The position numbers were made by a program, and so were the translations under genes. 64,000 nt of DNA from Eledone cirrhosa (lineage: Eukaryota): the NCBI GenBank assembly GCA_964016885.1, contig OZ024741.1, positions 160,518,001 to 160,582,000 of the forward strand, in the 5' to 3' direction. The notes beneath the pieces were generated by a model that did not search any database, was not told the DNA's origin, and saw only the letters and a program-made list of their open reading frames with translations. Below are positions 17,711 to 58,589 of the stretch, piece by piece (positions within the stretch are counted from its first letter, which is position 1; each line of letters starts with the position of its first letter).

Positions 17711-17989
17711 CTGTTGCATTAGCCAATCTACCTCATAAGACTCCTTCCTCGTGTGGAATGCACTACTCCCAATTTCGAGTATTAAAACGACACCAGGGAT
17801 TCGACGGCGACTGGCATGAAAGGAAGGGCGAGTCAGGTCTCTCTCTTTGGCTGCCTTCCCCTTTTCCGTTTTACGAGCAGCAGGGCTAATTTACACATTT
17901 AGTTCGGGACGCCTTACATTCAAATCCTGTCAAGAGTAACGTAGCGGTGTGGAATCGTGATTGTGGTAGCCATGGTAGTCATGATGGAA

Positions 17990-20900
17990 TAGTGATGATC
18001 AAGTATTCATGGTTGGGGTAGAGGTGGTTTAGTAGACATGGTTGTGGTAGTGATGGTTGAGTTGTCATGGTTATGGTAGTGATGGTTGAGTAGTCATGGT
18101 TGTGGTAGTGATGGTTGAGTAGTCATGGTTGTGGTAGTGATGGTTGAGTAGTCATGGTTAAGGTAGTGATGGTTGAGTAGTCATGGCTGAGTAGTCATGG
18201 TTATGGTAGTGATGGTTGAGTAGTCATGGTTATGGTAGTGATGGTTGAGTAGTCATGGTTATGGTAGTTATGGTTGAGTAGTCATGGTTGAGTAGTCATG
18301 GTTATGGTAGTGATGGTTGAGTAGTCATGGTTATGGTAGTGATGGTTGAGTAGTCATGGTTGTGGTAGTGATGGTTGAGTAGTCATGGTTGAGTAGTCAT
18401 GGTTGTGGTAGTGATGGTTGAGTAGTCATGGTTATGGTAATGATGGTTGAGTAGTCATGGTTGAGTAGTCATGGTTGAGTAGTCATGGTTGTGGTAGTGA
18501 TGGTTAAGTAGTCATGGTTATGGTAATGATGGTTGAGTAGTCATGGTTGAGTAGTCATGGTTATGGTAGTGATGGTTGAGTAGTCATGGTTGAGTAGTCA
18601 AGGTTGTGGTAGTGATGGTTGAGTAGTCATGGTTATGGTAATGATGGTTGAGTAGTCATGGTTGAGTAGTCATGGTTATGGTAGCGATGGTTGAGTAGTC
18701 ATGGTTGAGTAGTCATGGTTGTGGTAGTGATGGTTGAGTAGTCATGGTTATGGTAGTGATGGTTGAGTAGTCATGGTTGAGTAGTCATGGTTATGGTAGT
18801 GATGGTTGAGTAGTCATGGTTGAGTAGTCATGGTTGTGGTAGTGATGGTTGAGTAGTCATGGTTATGGTAGTGATGGTTGAGTAGTCAAGGTTGAGTAGT
18901 CATGGTTGAGTAGTCATGGTTATGGTAGCGATGGTTGAGTAGTCATGGTTGAGTAGTCATGGTTGTGATAGTGATGGTTGAGTAGTCATGGTTATGGTAG
19001 TGATGGTTGAGTAGTCATGGTTGAGTAGTTATGGTTATGGTAGCGATGGTTGTGTAGTCATGGTTGAGTAGTCATGGTTGTGGTAGTGATGGTTGAGTAG
19101 TCATGGTTGAGTAGTCATGGTTGTGGTAGTGATGGTTGAGTAGTCATGGTTATGGTAGTGATGGTTGAGTAGTCATGGTTGTGGTAGTGATGGTTGAGTA
19201 GTCATGGTGGAGTAGTCATGGTTATGGTAGCCATGATTGAGTAGTCATGGTTGAGTAGTCATGGTTATGGTAGTGATGGTTGAGTAGTCATGGTTGAGTA
19301 GTCATGGTTGTGGTAGTGATGGTTGAGTAGTCATGGTTATGGTAGTGATGGTTGAGTAGTCAAGGTTGAGTAGTCATGGTTGAGTAGTCATGGTTATGGT
19401 AGCGATGGTTGAGTAGTCATGGTTGAGTAGTCATGGTTGTGATAGTGATGGTTGAGTAGTCATGGTTATGGTAGTGATGGTTGAGTAGTCATGGTTGAGT
19501 AGTTATGGTTATGGTAGCGATGGTTGTGTAGTCATGGTTGAGTAGTCATGGTTGTGGTAGTGATGGTTGAGTAGTCATGGTTGAGTAGTCATGGTTGTGG
19601 TAGTGATGGTTGAGTAGTCATGGTTATGGTAGTGATGGTTGAGTAGTCATGGTTGTGGTAGTGATGGTTGAGTAGTCATGGTGGAGTAGTCATGGTTATG
19701 GTAGCCATGATTGAGTAGTCATGGTTGAGTAGTCATGGTTGTGGTAGTCATGGTTGAGTAGTCATGGTTGAGTAGTCATGGTTGAGTAGTGGTGGTTGAG
19801 TAGTCATGGTTATGGTAGTGATATTTAATTAGTGATGGTTGAGTAGTCATGGTTATGATAGTGATGGTTGAGTAGTCATGGTTGAGTAGTGATGGTTTAG
19901 TAGTCATGGTTATGGTAGTGATGGTTGAGTAATTATGGTTGAGTAGTCATGGTTGTGGTAGTGATGGTTGAGTAGTCATGGTTAAGGTAGTGATGGATGA
20001 GTAGTCATGGTTGAGTAGTCATGGTTATGGTTGTGATGGTTGAGTAGTCATTGTTATGGTAGTGATGGTTGAGTAGTCATGGTTATGGTAGTTATGGTTG
20101 AGTAGTCATGGTTGAGTAGTCATGATTGTGGTAGTGATGGTTGAGTAGTCATGGTTATGGTAGTGATGGTTGAGTATTCATGGTTGAGTAGTCATTGTTA
20201 GGGTAGCGATGGTTGAGTAGTCATGGTTGAGTAGTCATGGTTGTGGTAGTGATTTTTGAGTAGTCATGGTTATGGTAGTGATGGTTGAGTAGTCATGGTT
20301 ATGGTAGTGGTGGTTGAGTAGTCCTGGTGGAGTAGTCATGGTTGAGTAGTCATGGTTATGGTAGTGATGGTTGAGTAGTCATGGTTGAGTAGTCATGGTT
20401 ATGGTAGCGATGGTTGAGTATTCATGGTTGAGTAGTCATGGTTGTGGTAGTGATGGTTGAGTAGTCATGGTTATGGTAATGATGGTTGAGTTGTCATGTT
20501 TGTGGTAGTGATGGTTGAGTTGTCATGGTTATGGTAGTCATGGTTATGGTAGCGATGGTTGAGTAGTCATGGTTGAGTAGTCATGGTTGTGGTAGTGATG
20601 GTTGAGTAGTCATGGTTGAGTAGTCATGGTTGTGATGGTTGAGTAGTCATGGTTGAGTAGTCTTGGTTATGGTAGTGATGGTTGAGTAGTCATGGTTATG
20701 GTAGTGATGGATTGAGTAGTGATGGTTGAGTAGTCATGGTTATGGTAGTGATGGTTGAGTAGTCATGGTTATGGTAGCGGTGGTTGAGTAGTCATGGTTA
20801 TGGTAGTGATGGTTGAGTAGTCATGGTTATGGTGTGATGGTTGAGTAGTCATGGTTGAGTAGTCATGGTTATGGTAGTGATGGTTGAGTAGTCATGGTTA

Positions 20901-21620
20901 TGTTAGTGATGGTTGAGTAGTCATGGTTATGGTAGTGATGGTTGAGTAGTCATGGTTGAGTAGTGATGGTTGAGTAGTCATGGTTATGGTAGTGATGGTT
21001 GAGTAGTCATGGTTATGGTAGTGATGGTTGAGTAGTCCTGGTTGAGTAGTCATGGTTATGGTAGCGATGATTGAGTAGTCATTGTTGAGTAGTCATGGTT
21101 GAGTAGTGGTGGTTGAGTAGTCATGGTTGAGTAGTCATGGTTATTGTAGTGATGTTTAATTAGTGATGGTTGAGTAGTCATGGTTATGATAGTGATGGTT
21201 GAGTAGTCATGGTTGAGTAGTGATGGTTTAGTAGTCATGGTTGAGTAGACATGGCTGAGGTAGTGATGGTTGAGTAGTCATGGTTGAGTAGTGGTGGTTG
21301 AGTAGTCATGGTTGAGTAGTCATGGTTGAGTAGTGATGTTTGAGTAGTGGTGGTTAGGTAGACATGGTTGTGGTAGTGATGGTTGTGTAGTCATGGTTAT
21401 GGTAGTGATGGTTGAGTAGTCATGGTTGTGGTAGTGTTGGTTGAGTAGTCATGGTTATGGTAGTGATGGTTGAGTAGTCATGGTTGAGTAGTCATGGTTA
21501 TGGTAGTGATGGTCGGGTAGGGATGGTAGAGTAGACATGATTGTTTAATGGTGGTTGAGTCCTCATGGCTGGTTAGTAGTGGTTGTGGTGAAAGTTGAGT
21601 AGTGCTGGTTGTAGTAGTGA
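17990..21620. repeat. Minisatellite of 14-bp (catggttgagtagt) and 15-bp (ggttatggtagtgat) subunits
   Basis: ~3.6 kb of AB/AAB arrangements, degenerate at both edges. Confidence 0.95.
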
Positions 21621-22045
21621 TGGTTGAGTTGTCATAGCCGGTCAGTGATGGTAGTGGTGGTTGTAATAGTGGCTGGTGAGTAGGGATGGTAATGGTCGTT
21701 ATTACAGTGGTGGCAGTGGCGGTAGTGGTGATAAGGCAGTGGTGGTGCTGTGAATAAAACTATAGGGGCTTAGAATGAAACAATAGGGTTGGGTTTCATG
21801 GTTGGCTAGTCATGGTTGGCTAGTCATGGTTAGTCATAGTTAAGTAGTGGTGGTTGTGATAGTGGTGGCTGGGTAGTGATAGTGATGATGGTAGTTATGA
21901 TTATGATGGTGGTGATACGATAGAGGTGGGCTGAGAATGAAACTAAGGACTGAAAGTGTAGGTGTTAAAATGAACCAATAGAGGCCGAGATTGGAACTAA
22001 ATGGCTGCGATTTAAACTATATGTGATTAGAATGAAACTCTAGGG

Positions 22046-31269: not shown

Positions 31270-34200
31270 AATCAAATATATTTCAGAGGTACTGTGCTGT
31301 TTCCTCAGTACGTCCTCATCAGATAAAATAAATTGATGTCTGACATACCTCAACTGTGCTGATGGTTCAATTCCAGTTTTGGCAGTGATTAGTTATTGAA
31401 AACTCAATATTTATATACCATAAGTAGTAACATGACAAACTACATATAATTGAGAGGGTGAGTGTAGAAAAAAATAAAATAAATAAATATATAGATAAGT
31501 AAAATACATAAACACATAAATACATAATATGTAAATATCCGTATTAGAGAAAAACAAATGAGAGAGAAAGAGCTAAATAGAGGAGAAAAGGAAAAGATAG
31601 AGAGATGAAAATAAAAACGAAGGGAGATATAGATGGTATAATATAATTACAATAGGAAAAGAAGAGTAGAGGTTTTTTTTTCAAATATTAAGTTAGGTAG
31701 AAACGATCAATTAAATACCGTGAAATTTTTACTCTATAATATTTGAAAGAAATTATACTATTATATTATATCAAAATTAAAACAATATAGAGTGATTTAA
31801 GATAATATAACATATTTTCAATGATAATCTGGAGCATATTTAAATTAGCAAATACATTCAATAATTTGGTTATAAAATTCAAAATTCAAAATATTATTAA
31901 CTAACAATGGTGCTTACAAATATAGTAAATATAAAATTATTAAACATAACTTATTTAGATATTAGCATCTGTATAAGCATTTTATATAAACAATACTATT
32001 TAAATCTATATTTGTCAATTACATATAGGATTAATTATTAGTTATATTTACACTTGAGAGTATTATTATTTCGATTTAACCAAATTTTACTGTATTCCAT
32101 ACTATAAATCAAGTTAAATACAGATTATTAATCAATTGAGATAAAACCAAACTTATACACGATAAATGTAAACAATATCTTCGTACGACGTATCCAAACG
32201 TTTAAATTAATTAAACTGTTTGAAAGTCTGAAGATATTACAGATCTCAAATTTATAAAATAGAGGATTCTAAATCGAAACTAAAGGTATTTAAACAATCA
32301 AGAGATTATCATATTCTTTTAAAGAACAGGTATGCATTTCCTAAGGTGAGGTAGAAACATTATACACAATATCAATAATAGCAATAATAGCAATAATAGA
32401 AGCATTACAAGAATTATTAATAAGAGTCAATATATTTTCTCACTCAGTCAACGTTTTTTCCTAATTTTATATGATGCTTGAAATGTTGTTGCAGATTTAT
32501 GGAGGCAATTTGAGAATAACTCACTTTTTTTTTAAATTAAATTACCATAATTAGCAATTATTAATAGAGTCTCGGTATTGCAAAGATTGCAGTTAGGTGA
32601 GATGGAATTATTCCGATAAACTTCACAGTTTCGAAGTTTAGTCCAAAAGATTGAGTATTTTATATTTTTCTCTATTAAAGACCATAATAATTGTGATAAA
32701 GAAGTAGAAATTTCTAATCCGGATTAGAAAAAGAATGTTTATGATTGGAAAATCTCAGTTTAAAGGTCGATGAAGTTGCACCTATGTAGTTATAGGTAAT
32801 ATTATTATTTGTTTTAATGGTACATTTATATACTAAATTCTTATCAAGGCAGTTATTTTGCAAAGGGCATTCAGATTTTCTTCTACAGTTACAGTTCGAT
32901 TTCATGCTATTTCTATAATCTAAACTGTTCGCATTATCATTGTTAATATTTGTAGGTGTTCTACTGTAAGTGCTTAAATTAATGTTATTGTTATTCTCTA
33001 TAACTATAGTATTTTTATTATTAATATTGTCATTATCGCTAATTATCTGTTGGTTATAACTAAGAATTCTGCTATTTATTTTTGCAATATTTTGAGCCAT
33101 ATTCATAGTTGTTGAGTAAGATAGTTTAACTGTGTGTCTATTGAAGATAGAGTACTATTTATGTGTTCTAGGGAAACATTTATCTAATTCTTTAAAAAAT
33201 AATTGTGCTAAGGGTGTTTTAATAGCTAAAGATGCTGGTGGGGTATACCAAATAATAGATCTAGTTCTAATTTTTTTCCCCGATTTATTCACGAAATTGG
33301 TATTTTTATTTATATTTGTATTATTTTTATTTTTATTTTTACAGTCTGCTTTATTTATATTATTCCTATTATTATGAATATTTTGCTTATAATTATAATT
33401 ATTATTTTCTACATATTCAATATTATTTTTATATCCTGCCTTATACAACGCTTCTTTATAATATCCAGCTTTACTTTTACTATTAAAAATGGATTTGTTA
33501 GCAGATAATCTAGTTAAACGTTGTTGAACACTATTGACTATTGCATTTTTAACACACTTAGGATGATTGGAATAAAGACTAACATAATTTAGGTTTTCAT
33601 TTGGTTTATGGAAGGGGTAATATAGGCCTGGGTTTAAATTGAGGGTTACATCTAGGAAGTAACTACTTTACTGTTACTTTCTACTTCTAATTTCAGGTCG
33701 TAATTTTTAAAGAATTCTATAATTGTTTTCTTTACTCTATTTAATTCACTATTGCTATGTTTAACTACAGTAAATAATATATCATCTCTATATAAACCAC
33801 CGGTAATCTTCGGCAGTTTTCTATTTATCATATTAAGGATAAAAATTCACAGAAGATCGGTAACCTACGCAGAATCGGACGATCCCATGGTAATGTCGAA
33901 ATTCTTCTGTCTATCCGAACGAGTCCAAAAATCATTATTAAAATTAATCAAGGTTCGTCTAGCCGTTAAAATAATATTAGTCTCCTCACTAGATAGCTCA
34001 GTGTGTTTATATGCGTATGATAAAGCCTTATTCAAAAGGTTAGGAGTTATAGATGAGTAGTAACTCGATATGTCCATTTGAATAAATTTATGATTTTTCT
34101 TATTTTCAATGTTCTTAAACCAATCTATGACTTCCCTAGTGTCCTTCCATAAGTTAAGCTTTGACTTCAATTTTAATGTTGGCAAAATTCTATCTATTAT

Positions 34201-34539: not shown

Positions 34540-35465
34540 CAAAATATTAATAAATGAAAAATATTCTCAAAATCAAAATATATATTTTATTATACATATT
34601 TCAAAGGTACAATGGTGTTTAAGTACGTTTTCATCAGATAAAATATAAGATTTGATATGCGACATACCGCTACGGTTTTGATTATTCAATTCCAATAGTG
34701 GCAGTGATTTATTTCACCAACCCTCAACGTTTTTATTCCACAAATAATATGATAAACCTAGAGAAGAAGAGGACGTAGAGCAAGGTAGAAATATAGAAGG
34801 AAAGTTGAGATGGAAGATGCAAAGAAAAAGAAAGAGGCAAGAAATAAACAAATAAATAAATAAATAAATGAATGAATAAAAGAAGAAAAAAGATGTAAGA
34901 GAAAAAAGGGGAATAAAAACAAAAGAAAGGGAAGATGTGAGGAGAAAAAAGGAAAAAAGAAGGGGAATAAAGAAAAACGAAGAGGAAAAGGAAAGGATAA
35001 AATAGAGGGGAGAATTAAAAAACATTCTATTCAAATGCTAGACAAAATTAGAAATTAAAAGTTTTTTCTTGTCTTTTTCTTTGTATCTTCCATCTCAACT
35101 CCCCTTGTATATTTCTACCTTGCTCTACGTCCTCTTCTTCTCTAAGTTTATCATATTATTTGTGGCATAAAAACGTTGAGAGTTGGTGAAATAAATCACT
35201 GCCACTATTGGAATTGAATAATCAAAACGGTAGCGGTATGTCGCGTATCAAATCTTATATTTTGTCTGATGAAAACGTACTTAAACGCCATTGTACCTTT
35301 GAAATATGTATAATAAAATATATATTTTGATTATGAGAATATTTTTCATATATTAATATTTTGAATAATATTAAATACTCCAGGAAAATTTACTGCCGAG
35401 TGCTTCTAATCTATTGTAAAATTTTATTCGTTGAATAATCAACGAACCATATTAATCTTTGGTTA
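34533..35465. mobile_element. Inverted pair of PLE pseudo-LTRs (arms 34533-34831 / 35072-35370), each with an HHR
   Basis: ~299-bp near-identical inverted arms; the plus copy continues to 35465 with a tail related to the 37297 and 39985 ends; (TA)n on both flanks. Confidence 0.85.
35256..35322 (+). ncRNA. Type I hammerhead ribozyme (mirror copy on minus strand at ~34581-34647)
   Basis: tatattttgt-CTGATGA-aaacgtac..gtaccttt-GAAA-tatgta-TA-ataaaatata; 10-bp stem I. Confidence 0.7.
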
Positions 35466-41109: not shown

Positions 41110-41300
41110 AGCCTGTATTGGTTGGCCACGGGTGCCAGAGGGAGTTCATTGCTGCTGCCCTTAGGTTTCCCTTGTGCCTTGCTGTGGGCTCATCCGGGAT
41201 CCTGGATAGCAAGGTGTCGAGATGTTTCTTGAAAACATCCACGTCCACACCATGCAGATCTCTCAGATCCCTCGGCAGCTTGTTGAAGAGTTTAAATTTG
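41110..41300 (-). mobile_element. CR1/L2-group LINE 3' fragment
   Basis: KLFNKLPRDLRDLHGVDVDVFKKHLDTLLSRIPDEP..RAAAMNSL. Confidence 0.7.
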
Positions 41301-41491
41301 GTGGCTTACCACTGGGTAGAATTGGTCATTCTGCAATGTTAACCATGAGGTAATATAAGGAAAGCACTCGATGTTATGCAACTCACCCATCTTCAATGTT
41401 GAATCATGTTGGTGGTGCGGGAACGGAGTAAATGTATTACAAAGTGAAATGACAGGAGGCCAAATATGTTGAATTTCCAGTCATTTCACTT

Positions 41492-41531
<40 letters not shown>

Positions 41532-41762
41532 AAGGACTAGCGTCTGAAACGTTAAGACCCTCTTCCTGCTTTATCAAGCGTTAACCTAGTATGTCCCTTC
41601 CATATACTGTGCCGATTGTGTTGTTATTTATGTTTACCTCATACATATATATATATGAGTGTATATATAGTGTATTTTGCAATACATTGTATGCTTAATT
41701 AAAAGCATTTTGAAGACCTTACGCTATTGTTTTAAAGTAGTGACTATGTCACTTACTTCTTA

Positions 41763-41852
41763 TTTCAACAAACAAAGGGAGATAAGCTGACAGATCTCTG
41801 TTTCATACTGTCGGTATTCCTCAGAGCTTAGCACTCCCTTTGTTTGTTGAAA
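41763..41852 (-). ncRNA. Canonical type I hammerhead ribozyme (GUC site)
   Basis: tttcaacaaacaaagggag-tgc-taagct-CTGAGGA-atac-cgaca-gtat-GAAA-cag-agat-ctg-TC^agctta-t-ctccctttgtttgttgaaa; all core nucleotides and three stems intact; predicted cut between 41789 and 41788. Confidence 0.92.
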
Positions 41853-41956
41853 ATTATGAATGTTGGATTCTTATAAAATTCCAGTAATAAGCTCTGAGGA
41901 ATAGTTTGCAATTTTCAACAGTTGAAAATTGCAAACTTGACTGTCACCACTGAATA

Positions 41957-41995
41957 TGAACTTGAAGATTGCGAAAGCATGAAAGTACTTATTCA
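41957..41995 (+). ncRNA. Degenerate minimal hammerhead-like motif
   Basis: tgaa-CTTGAAGA-ttgc-gaaa-gcat-GAAA-gtac-TTA-ttca; one extra U in the core box. Confidence 0.45.
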
Positions 41996-42380
41996 ATTAA
42001 CATTTAACAGTTAATATTCAACCACACTATTTCATTATAATATCATTATAATTTTGAAGGATTGTAAATAAAACGAGTAAATCAAACAAAGTTGGAATTC
42101 CTTTTATTAATATAATCTTCTGTACACAATCATACACATCCGTGTATATATGATGAAGAAATGAAGAACTAGCGTCCGAAACGTTAAGACCCTCTTCCTG
42201 CTTCAAGCGTTAACCTAATATGTCCCTTCCATATACTGTGCCGATTGTGTTGTTATTTATGTTTACCTCATACATATATATATGAATGTATATATATATA
42301 GTGTATTTTGCAATATACAGTATGCTTAATTAAAAGCATTTTGAAGACCTTACGCTATTGTTTTATATATATATGTATAT

Positions 42381-42572
42381 GAAAAAGTTTAACCCAACGG
42401 CAGAGCTCAAGCCGTTTCGACGGCTATTTCTGGACTCATTCCAGAAATAGCCGTCGAGACGGCTTGAGCTTTGCCGTCGTTGTTAAACTTTTTCCTGTTA
42501 CCCACTCTACTACCCTAAGTATTGAGTACTCTGGTGCGTCCATCTGGTTCCTTACCACACCCCCTTCGTTAT
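42381..42572 (+). mobile_element. Fold-back PLE pseudo-LTR fragment (arms 42381-42433 / 42441-42494)
   Basis: Homologous to 2412-2608, including the hairpin centre gacggcta.tt..aa.tagccgtc. Confidence 0.7.
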
Positions 42573-42939
42573 ATATTTAAAACGACAACTAGAAGATTTT
42601 AATCACTATACATATTTCAATGGCCCAGTTCCAGTTGATTTGCCTACCATAACCACCAGTTCTACACATAACTGATCAAAATGACTTAAATGGTATATGT
42701 ATATACATATACCATATGTGTGTGTGTGTGTATACTTAAAAAATGGATTTTATCCAAAAAAAATAACTATCAGTCCCAGCTAGCCACACCCATTATATTT
42801 GCTATATATACTGTGTCATGTTAAAATGATCAGCAGCAATCCACAAAATACAGAGTAGCATCAGAGAGTAGTATCAGTAAGATAATGATATCGATATAAG
42901 TAATATCAGTAAGATAATGATATCGTATGAGTGTCCAAC

Positions 42940-54740: not shown

Positions 54741-54939
54741 GTAATCACCACAAAAACATAACAACAACAACGAAAAGCATGACCACCAACACAAACACCA
54801 CCACAACAACAGCCACCATAGCAAACACATCAGTCACCGCCACCACCACCATCACCACAACAACAATAACAACAACAACAATAAGAGCAACCACCACCAA
54901 CACAACGACCACTTCAACAACAACTAACACTACAACAGC

Positions 54940-57900
54940 CAAAACAGCAACCACCACAACAACAGCCACAACAACCACAACCACAACCTCAACAACGACC
55001 ACAACCTCAACAACAACCACAACCTCAACAACAACCACAACCTCAACAACGACCACAACCTCAACAACGACCACAACCTCAACAACAACCACAACCTCAA
55101 CAACGACAACAACCTCAACAACAACCACTACCTCAACAACGACCACAACCTCAACAACAACCACAACCTCAACAACCACCACAACAACAACCACTACAAC
55201 AACAACCACAACCTCAACAACAACCACTACCTCAACAACAACCACAACCTCAACAACGACCACAACCTCAACAACAACCTCAACCTCAACAACAACCACT
55301 ACCTCAACAACAACCACTACCTCAACAACAACCACTACCTCAACAACAACCACAACCTCAACAACAACCACAACCTCAACAACAACCACAACCACAACCT
55401 CAACAACAACCACAACCTCAACAACAACCACTACCTCAACAACAACCACAACCTCAACAACAACCACTACCTCAACAACAACCACAACCTCAACAACAAC
55501 CACTACCTCAACAACAACCACTAACTCAACAACAACCACAACCTCAACAACAACCACTACCTCAACAACGACCACAACCTCAACAACAACTACTACCTCA
55601 ACAACAACCACAACCTCAACAACAACCACTACCTCAACAACAACCACAACCTCAACAACAACCACTACCTCAACAACAACCACTACCTCAACAACAACCA
55701 CTACCTCAACAACAACCACAACCTCAACAACAACCACAACCTCAACAACAACCACTACCTCAACAACAACCACAACCTCAACAACAACCACTACCTCAAC
55801 AACAACCACTACCTCAACAACAACCACTACCTCAACAACAACCACAACCTCAACAACAACCACTACCTCAACAACAACCACAACCTCAACAACAACCACT
55901 ACCTCAACAACAACCACTACCTCAACAACAACCACTACCTCAACAACAACCACAACCTCAACAACAACCACAACCTCAACAACAACCACAACCTCAACAA
56001 CAACCACTACCTCAACAACAAACACAACCTCAACAACAACCACTACCTCAACCACAACCACTACCTCAACAACAACCACAACCTCAACAACAACCACAAC
56101 CTCAACAACAACCACTACCTCAACAACAACCACTACCTCAACAACAACCACTACCTCAACAACAACCACAACCTCAACAACAACCACTACCTCAACAACA
56201 ACCACAACCTCAACAACAACCACTACCTCAACAACAACCACTACCTCAACAACAACCACTACCTCAACAACAACCACAACCTCAACAACAACCACAACCT
56301 CAACAACAACCACTACCTCAACAACAACCACTACCTCAACAACGACCACAACCTCAACAACAACCACAACCTCAACAATAACCACTACCTCAACCACAAC
56401 CACTACCTCAACAACAACCACTACCTCAACAACAACCACAACCTCAACAACAACCACTACCTCAACCACAACCACTACCTCAACAACGACCACAACCTCA
56501 ACAACAACCACTACCTCAACAACAACCACAACCTCAACAACAACCACTACCTCAACAACAACCACAACCTCAACAACAACCACTACCTCAACCACAACCA
56601 CTACCTCAACAACGACCACAACCTCAACAACAACCACTACCTCAACAACGACCACAACCTCAACAACAACCACAACCTCAACAACAACCACAACCTCAAC
56701 AACAACCACAACCTCAACAACAACCACAACCTCAACAACAACCACTACCTCAACAACAACCACAACCTCAACAACAACCACAACCTCAACAACAACCACA
56801 ACCTCAACAACAACCACTACCTCAACAACAACCACAACCTCAACAACAACCACTACCTCAACCACAACCACTACCTCAACAACGACCACAACCTCAACAA
56901 CAACCACAATCTCAACAACAACCACAACCTCAACAACAACCACAACCTCAACAACAACCACTACCTCAACAACAACCACAACCTCAACGACAACCACTAC
57001 CTCAACAACAACCACAACCTCAACAACAACCACTACCTCAACCACAACCACTACCTCAACAACGACCACAACCTCAACAACGACCACTACCTCAACAACG
57101 ACCACAACCTCAACAACAACCACAACCTCAACAACAACCACAACCTCAACAACAACCACAACCTCAACAACAACCACAACCTCAACAACAACCACTACAT
57201 CAACAACAACCACAACCTCAACAACAACCACAACCTCAACCACAACCACTACCTCAACAACGACCACAACCTTAACAACAACCACAACCTCAACAACAAC
57301 CACAACCTCAACAACAACCACAACCTCAACAACAACCACAACCTCAACAACAACCACAACCTCAACAACAACCACAACCTCAACAACAACCACTACCTCA
57401 ACCACAACCACTACCTCAACAACGACCACAACCTCAACAACAACCACAACCTCAACAACAACCACAACCTCAACCACAACCACTACCTCAACAACGACCA
57501 CAACCTCAACAACAACCACAACCTCAACAACAACCACTACCTCAACCACAACCACTACCTCAACAACAACCACAACCTCAACAACGACCACAACCTCAAC
57601 AACAACCACAACCTCAACAACAACCACTACCTCAACCACAACCACTACCTCAACAACGACCACAACCTCAACAACAACCACAACCTCAACAACAACCACA
57701 ACCTCAACCACAACCACTACCTCAACAACGACCACAACCTCAACAACAACCACAACCTCAACAACAACCACTACCTCAACCACAACCACTACCTCAACAA
57801 CAACCACAACCTCAACAACAACCACAACCTCAACAACAACCACAACCTCAACAACAACCACTACCTCAACCACAACCACTACCTCAACAACGACCACAAC

Positions 57901-58000
57901 CTCAACAACAACCACAACCTCAACAACAACCACAACCTCAACAACAACCACAACCTCAACAACAACCACAACCTCAACAACAACCACTACCTCAACAGCA
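54940..58000. repeat. 18-bp minisatellite (acaacaaccacaacctca)n, ~170 units; open STTTTT frame
   Basis: Direct reading; ORF 54779-58216 is the translation of the repeat. Confidence 0.95.
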
Positions 58001-58589
58001 ACCAACACCACAACAACCAACACTTCAACTACTACTACCACCGCATCAACCACCAAAAGCAACAACAACAACAACAGCCTCAATAACAAAAAACAAAACA
58101 GCAACAACCACAACAACCACAACAACCTCAACAACAACCAACACCACAACAACCACTACCACTTCAACAACAACCACAGTAACAACTACTATGAGCACCA
58201 TCACTATCAACAATGAGAATACGAACTAGCGAGATAACCTCTATTTAGTCGGGTGATCTGCAAGAAATAGCAGCCAAATCTTCCCCGTGTCACGTTGGTT
58301 AATGTGGTTTTAGATTCTTTGTACATGGTAAAAGAAGAGTTGGTCATGACTGGAATGACTTTGAGTACATTTTTTATCAGTGTTGGACTAAAACAACAAC
58401 CCACAGCAACACAATATCACCACCATTAGCTCTACCACCGAACACCTACCACTACCACCACCACTACTGTCACCATTAACACCACCAACACTATAACCTT
58501 AACCACCATCGTCACTACCACCACCATTATCGCTACTACCATTATCACAACGACCACCACCACCATCAAAACTACCACCACAACTAACA

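Follow-up and report, generated by a model that had tools for sequence, protein, structure and literature searches.

A cluster of hammerhead motifs on both strands of Eledone cirrhosa DNA is very probably a single-copy stack of Penelope-like element ends and one arm of a 318-nt retrozyme family

Hammerhead-like motifs lie on both strands of a short interval (41527..42364) within the 64,000-nt stretch of Eledone cirrhosa DNA that was analysed here as a whole (the window), and they raise the question of whether the interval is one ambisense element or an assembly of separate parts. A preliminary description had proposed a 632-nt retrozyme-type element with ribozymes on both strands. The ~205-bp direct repeats on which this proposal was built are present at 41529-41734 and 42161-42365 and are 93% identical, their offset being 632 at the start and 629-631 further along. 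The interval also lacks coding capacity, as had been stated, with no ATG ORF of more than 35 aa overlapping 41400-42500. The window is microsatellite-rich and occupies positions 160518001-160582000 of contig C2 in a 2,996-Mb assembly of 1,796 contigs. Our analysis indicates that the cluster is very probably a one-off stack of three unrelated high-copy mobile families in (TA)n with a local duplication, in which families A and C are represented by truncated 3' ends of Penelope-like elements (PLEs) and family B by one retrozyme arm, likely mobilised by PLEs. The features are as follows.

41495..41527, strand not applicable: (TA)n run, the left landing site.
41527..41640, plus strand: A copy 1, assigned as the 5'-truncated 3' end (pLTR) of an autonomous PLE family by a 32-mer count and by coding sequence upstream in longer copies.
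41641..41890, minus strand: B arm, 250 nt out of a 318-nt non-coding head-to-tail monomer, its 3' end pointing left into a short TA run in common with A.
41763..41852, minus strand: intact type I hammerhead of B, by motif, fold and covariation.
41888..41903, plus strand: inverted 16-nt scrap of the B hammerhead, overlapping the B arm by 3 nt where the two meet.
41903..41937, strand not applicable: palindrome, the short fold-back head of C, present at many C copies.
41919..42151, plus strand: C, assigned as the 5'-truncated 3' end (pLTR) of a second autonomous PLE by a 27-mer count and the near-full copy L125.
42151..42269, plus strand: A copy 2, a local duplicate of copy 1 by a diagnostic 35-mer and rare variants.
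42270..42365, minus strand: 94-nt 3' piece of B that lacks the hammerhead, then a TA run, by sequence match.

To the right of the cluster, a near-perfect hairpin with ~50-bp arms was observed at 42381-42494. It belongs to another dispersed repeat (matches in L008, L026 and L027) and is probably the fold-back head of a further family. The window also contains long minisatellites at 17975-21635 and 54857-58186, with periods of 14/29 nt and 18 nt.

The complete type I hammerhead described on the minus strand was confirmed at 41763-41852, with the core at 41824-41818 and GAAA at 41804-41801. The predicted cut falls between 41789 and 41788, after the C at 41789. The outer stem of the motif has 19 bp, the inner stem I 6 bp and stem II 4 bp, and stem III is nearly palindromic and closed by a 2-nt loop III; the fold of the motif gave a z of -6.6, and 0 of 200 shuffles were equally stable. 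The Rfam search with Infernal that had been suggested as a check called no hammerhead, even for this complete motif: no match at the gathering threshold was obtained in the window, and no hammerhead family was present among the 42 matches at E <=10 in 41300-42700. The assignment of B as a putative hammerhead rests on the motif and on covariation, with no call from Rfam.

This was the sole intact hammerhead of the cluster, and none on the plus strand was intact. The second CTGAGGA box (41888-41903), previously counted among the ribozyme motifs, is the reverse complement of 41815-41830 and has neither a stem II nor a GAAA of its own. Short inverted pieces were observed at other B heads, too. The palindrome with 16-bp arms reported after this box is present at 41903-41937. 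The minimal plus-strand motif quoted for both repeats was found in A copy 1 but not in copy 2, which differs from copy 1 in that 8 nt within the core region are duplicated, 3 nt are deleted and stem II carries G to A at 42167. Both copies lack C3 and the 5' arm of stem I, as had been noticed, and copy 2 is further broken. The degenerate minimal hammerhead at 41957-41995 (+) was also recovered; compared with its own family, C, it has T in place of C3 at 41962 and a broken stem I pair at 41991. No hammerhead core was found on the antisense strand of B. Elsewhere in the window, further CTGANGA...GAAA motifs were observed at 34637 (-)/35266 (+) and 37484 (-)/38393 (+), both pairs lying on opposite strands and facing outward, and at 31322 (-). 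These are likely the ends of other PLE families.

When the whole 838-bp interval was used as the query (40 scored of 6,593 candidates), the self-match alone spanned the full length. The remaining scored matches were separate blocks corresponding to B (41641-41890), to C (41903-42151, a block that includes the palindrome) or to A+B, the last at two loci with 86-87% identity and another B subfamily. The B/C junction gave 1 match genome-wide with <=2 mismatches (3.0-Gb assembly), and the C/A junction gave 1 exact match. Among the contigs listed from three runs of one sample and of unspecified type, none spanned this stretch, an outcome that speaks neither for nor against the arrangement. Furthermore, a 35-mer carrying the A variants of the window matched exactly at the two window copies only, with 1 further match elsewhere at one mismatch. 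The exact pattern counts genome-wide were 2,651 for the A 32-mer, 6,115 for the C 27-mer, and 207 and 404 for the B subfamilies B1 and B2; a 16-mer common to B1 and B2 gave 1,724 exact matches versus 1 control match. In the 250-nt neighbourhood of B insertions, A was found in 3 of 84 cases and C in 1 of 84. Stacking of these families is common.

The copy-number comparison that had been named as the way to decide against the original proposal went against it: the repeat and the interior occur independently elsewhere, and the arrangement is unique. A 632-nt element with ribozymes on both strands does not agree with parts that occur separately as thousands of copies and junctions that occur once each. 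The idea of a retrozyme fails for the 632-nt unit, the junctions of which are single-copy, but holds for another unit, the 318-nt single-polarity tandem family B. The alternative offered in the preliminary description, stacked PLE termini with a local duplication, was right for A and C, both of which lie downstream of RT/GIY-YIG coding sequence, with single-copy junctions.

Copies of A and C were characterised at 30 loci each, taken as the first 30 pattern matches on contig C1. Their 3' ends are fixed in a microsatellite and their 5' truncation is variable; both families have a minimal hammerhead in the pLTR, inverted arms and microsatellite targets. These properties correspond to the partial tandems, inverted 5'-truncated copies, tail and microsatellite bias reported for PLEs (PMC8557442). 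Upstream of C, at locus L125, we found a 775-aa frame with matches to RVT_1 (27.6 bits, below the cut-off of 29.6) and GIY-YIG (27.8 bits, above the cut-off), as well as a 476-aa frame that lies upstream of this RT-EN frame and overlaps it, and which may reflect a frameshift, an intron or a genuine second ORF. The 5' repeat (5' pLTR) of L125 begins within one base of the predicted hammerhead cut. This near-full C element (L125:1090-6430 and beyond) forms a head-to-head inverted pair that is 99.9% identical and looks very young. Upstream of A, degenerate RT- and EN-like frames were detected by tblastn in 5 of 6 loci also matching A; the A frame by itself gave no Pfam match. A Cx4Cx2C linker is present in the frames of both families. 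As judged from these upstream frames, A and C are 3' ends of autonomous PLEs with RT and GIY-YIG, and the linker motif, the only basis of the clade assignment, would place them with the Neptune/Nematis type.

B is a non-LTR retrozyme by genomic criteria, non-coding and with a hammerhead in a single polarity. The family was mapped at 84 insertions, which consist of 25 of 30 pattern loci (5 were dropped as second matches at one place) and 59 from the listed matches; the map is exclusive of the window, five places already included and 107 unlisted matches. Head-to-tail crossing of the monomer junction was observed in 61 of 162 arms, with a period of 318. Upstream of the monomer there was only more monomer, with no upstream sequence common to 27 heads. 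Same-strand cut-site pairs one period apart numbered 82, mostly of B2, and 3 of these were arrays, one of which had 17.3 copies at period 318. Tandem arrays of the B2 type with ~17 units or more were located at L238 (C1:82.39 Mb), L239 (C1:268.93 Mb) and L240 (C2:208.90 Mb), and these are candidate source loci for B; L239 contains a higher-order repeat, and its array terminates in an inverted arm. B has a GC content of 0.33 and lacks LTR and PBS. PLE-coding bits were found in 6 of 114 B loci, one of them a 73-nt mid-ORF scrap fused to the head.

Between the B subfamilies, stems I and II show compensatory changes, and the core is C3-G8 or U3-A8, the latter being a reported natural covariation of hammerheads (PMC4209133). 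In the covariation analysis, 96% of cells were paired versus 29-41% in slid controls, and 5 pairs were changed on both sides (including C3-G8/U3-A8); since the alignment has 13 distinct rows, mostly of two subfamilies, each swap represents about one event and the independent events are few. A third subfamily, ~70% identical, keeps the U3-A8 core, the architecture and the head-to-tail form. The core covariation shows that the putative ribozyme is under selection across the three subfamilies. Autonomous PLEs of families A, C and F coexist with B in the genome. When loci of A, C and F were compared with B in search of a homologous pLTR parent, no match beyond TA-like sequence was found to L125 and L126 (C), L127 (A) or seven F loci.

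The ends of the dispersed B copies carry a regular pattern. Of 162 arm ends, 116 fall at two fixed positions 25 nt apart, and canonical outer ends meet a TA run in 77 of 107 cases versus a background of 10%. Two outward-facing arms were present in 57 of the 84 insertions, some arms being only short fold-backs. The 5' ends of the arms are spread smoothly through the cut site, with 4 of 116 lying within 6 nt of it, and two cut sites on one strand were found at four B1 loci and one B2 locus among 13 checked directly. A linear template starting at the cut site was rejected as the only template of B, as the 5' ends of the arms do not pile up there. Because the 5' ends run through the cut site and two cut sites occur on one strand, the template is expected to be a circle or an uncleaved multimer. 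We infer a circle by analogy with known retrozymes and from the selection on the ribozyme; an uncleaved multimer fits the read-through equally well.

In one in vitro study, a PLE used two start sites and a tail, and cleavage was not needed for insertion; the PLE protein acts on both strands, cleaving and extending each, and a dimeric form of it is predicted (PMC11167929). B has likely been spread around the genome by PLE proteins, as suggested by the form of its insertions. In the proposed course, the tandem arrays would be transcribed, the hammerhead would cut out 318-nt monomers, probably with help from the palindromic stem III folding as a dimer, and the monomers would be ligated into circles. 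A PLE protein would then nick (TA)n and begin reverse transcription at two internal B sites 25 nt apart. Reverse transcription would read through the B cut site round the circle and would often be primed from both DNA ends, giving the outward-facing inverted arms. Since twin arms point in opposite ways, hammerheads on opposite strands are a normal product of such insertion. Opposite-strand hammerhead pairs 100-700 bp apart have been described as a PLE by-product (PMC4209133). In the flanks of L037, L067, L148 and L158, B insertions were nested between inverted copies of other repeats, which suggests that two-armed insertions already in place were hit repeatedly, at their centre or at their ends.

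As for the formation of the locus, the two A copies have four variants in common that are rare among 30 family copies, and they accordingly descend from one insertion. Because both copies carry these common variants, which are older than the duplication, A appears to have landed first. Rare variants amount to 5/235 nt in B and 9/230 nt in C, and each A copy has acquired ~2% since the duplication versus 4-5% in total. The changes in B, in C and in A after its duplication would be of similar, poorly resolved age, the order of events resting on a handful of substitutions. In the sequence of events that we propose, A would have landed and aged, and B and C would have landed later, head to head, with their 3' ends outward. 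A and its TA tail (~120 bp, extending to 205 bp if the B fragment is included) would have been duplicated at roughly the time when B and C landed, either as a long target duplication or in a later local copying event.

The strongest alternative is that B and C arrived in one event, in which a dimeric PLE complex used the left DNA end to insert B and the right one to insert C, and nicks in two TA runs ~120-205 bp apart duplicated the older A. Under this reading, a more specific form of the stacking model that we propose, C would be named as the mobiliser of B. The geometry is the same two-armed outward form as in 57 of the 84 B insertions, the ages by rare variants are similar, and the reported action of a PLE protein on both strands as a predicted dimer (PMC11167929) agrees with it. 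At L067:1100-1730 (C1, ~4,923,260-4,923,890), we observed a TA run, a B2 arm, a short microhomology, a C arm and a TA run, with canonical 3' ends outward, which is a clean counterpart of the expected product. Such joins are rare, however. None of the 27 B heads in the 84 loci joins C; two exact junction patterns, which miss mutated copies including that of the window, gave 1 match (L067) and 0 matches; and no second join was found among 40 scored with L067 as the query. A long direct flank duplication was found at none of the 84 B insertions, and less stringent scanning of 119 loci yielded no clear case. Moreover, the short fold-back heads of B and C often abut unrelated flanks, sequential landing in one TA run would look identical, and stepwise landing followed by local copying fits as well. 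We consider a single event possible but unlikely.

Another composite join was observed at L167:863-1117 (C3, ~13,140,850-13,141,110), where 73 nt from mid-frame in the RT of F have been fused, in sense, to the head of a B arm. F is a third PLE family with ~50% aa identity to C, and at L167 it is absent on either side of the 73-nt piece. This fusion may have arisen when the template was switched from B RNA to the mRNA of F. That the mixed B/C insertions at the window locus (there with an unusually long target duplication) and at L067, together with the B-to-F switch at L167, directly record retrozyme mobilisation by PLE proteins is a tentative reading, which we regard as doubtful; in it, a single PLE complex would have copied a retrozyme circle at one DNA end and the RNA of C, an autonomous PLE, at the other.

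Another explanation takes the 632-nt unit for a chimeric retrocopy: a stack formed earlier would have been transcribed, circularised via the B hammerhead and re-inserted with a partial second round, so that the 205-bp repeat arose in a pLTR-like manner. The layout on the minus strand, a partial head plus a full unit, is like that of B insertions, and both ends adjoin TA runs. This course is nevertheless very improbable: it needs a source locus with identical junctions, and none was found genome-wide; it needs two flanking B hammerheads, and one is present; and the B parts of the two repeats have no rare variant in common. A retrozyme or viroid-like element of 632 nt whose hammerheads work in both polarities, and for which the motifs on both strands within 632 nt and a circle fold better than shuffles (z -5.3 and -8.3) could be cited, is next to impossible, since the unit is single-copy, its plus-strand motifs are broken and come from two unrelated PLE families, the B antisense has no core, the fold score is inflated by known hairpins and circle z-scores fail to separate the 318-nt monomer from the 632-nt unit, and opposite-strand pairs are already reported for PLEs (PMC4209133) and occur elsewhere in the window. 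As a retrozyme, the unit does not recur in the genome and is not bounded by two intact hammerheads on the same strand; as an ambisense viroid-like RNA, it has one intact motif only instead of intact ribozymes in both polarities. The single-copy stack of A, B and C is the reading that we retain.

The locus calls for caution in PLE-rich genomes, where hammerheads on opposite strands arise routinely through inverted twin-arm insertion and common (TA)n targets. That PLEs mobilise animal retrozymes has been suggested on the grounds of co-occurrence and pLTR homology, in work that did not settle the mechanism (PMC7229834; 10.64898/2026.07.22.740005). As judged from its genomic copies, B is a real non-LTR retrozyme family of a known kind, and the informative part is the PLE insertion footprints on these copies: a pair of fixed sites at which reverse transcription starts, passage through the ribozyme site, and twin arms. 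Intact-looking PLE frames are present in the same genome, which makes the question of the helper testable in the existing in vitro PLE assay. If true, the mixed insertions at the window locus and L067 and the switch at L167 would identify the helpers and define the priming sites to be used in such an assay. In the article texts that were searched, we found no cephalopod hammerhead/PLE retrozyme family like B, which may already be catalogued in a repeat library, and the main text of PMC7229834 does not mention cephalopods.

Compared with ambisense viroid-like circular RNAs (CChMVd and the toad and termite HDV-like RNAs; PMC7761336), the cluster is alike in that a few hundred bases contain hammerhead-like motifs of both strands, whereas here the motifs come from different repeat families, one is intact, and the locus is a single chromosomal one. 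A and C resemble PLEs of the Neptune/Nematis type, which have a C-terminal GIY-YIG and the Cx4Cx2C linker (PMC8557442), in RT and GIY-YIG, the minimal hammerhead in the pLTR, 5' truncation, inverted arms, optional tail and (TA)n targets. They differ in that the window holds broken 3' ends only and that the C parent L125 has an extra upstream frame of 476 aa.

Non-LTR retrozymes are short tandem monomers of ~170-400 nt found as dimers to multimers, and B has this form. It is similar to those of coral, mussel and axolotl (PMC7229834; 10.64898/2026.07.22.740005) in its 318-nt non-coding monomer with 33% GC, and also in having one type I hammerhead per unit, copies from monomers to multimers, and PLEs alongside (PMC7229834). 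In contrast to these metazoan retrozymes, stem III of B1 and B2 is longer (5 bp with a palindromic centre), the core is U3-A8 in two of the three subfamilies, B is known here from its genomic copies, and no homologous parent pLTR was found among the A, C and F loci compared. The dispersed B copies also have two-site 3' ends of the PLE type together with twin inverted arms, features that we did not find described for retrozymes in the available portions of these reports. With respect to the PLE studied in vitro (PMC11167929), the two 3' ends of B, 25 nt apart, resemble the two start sites and tail of that element.
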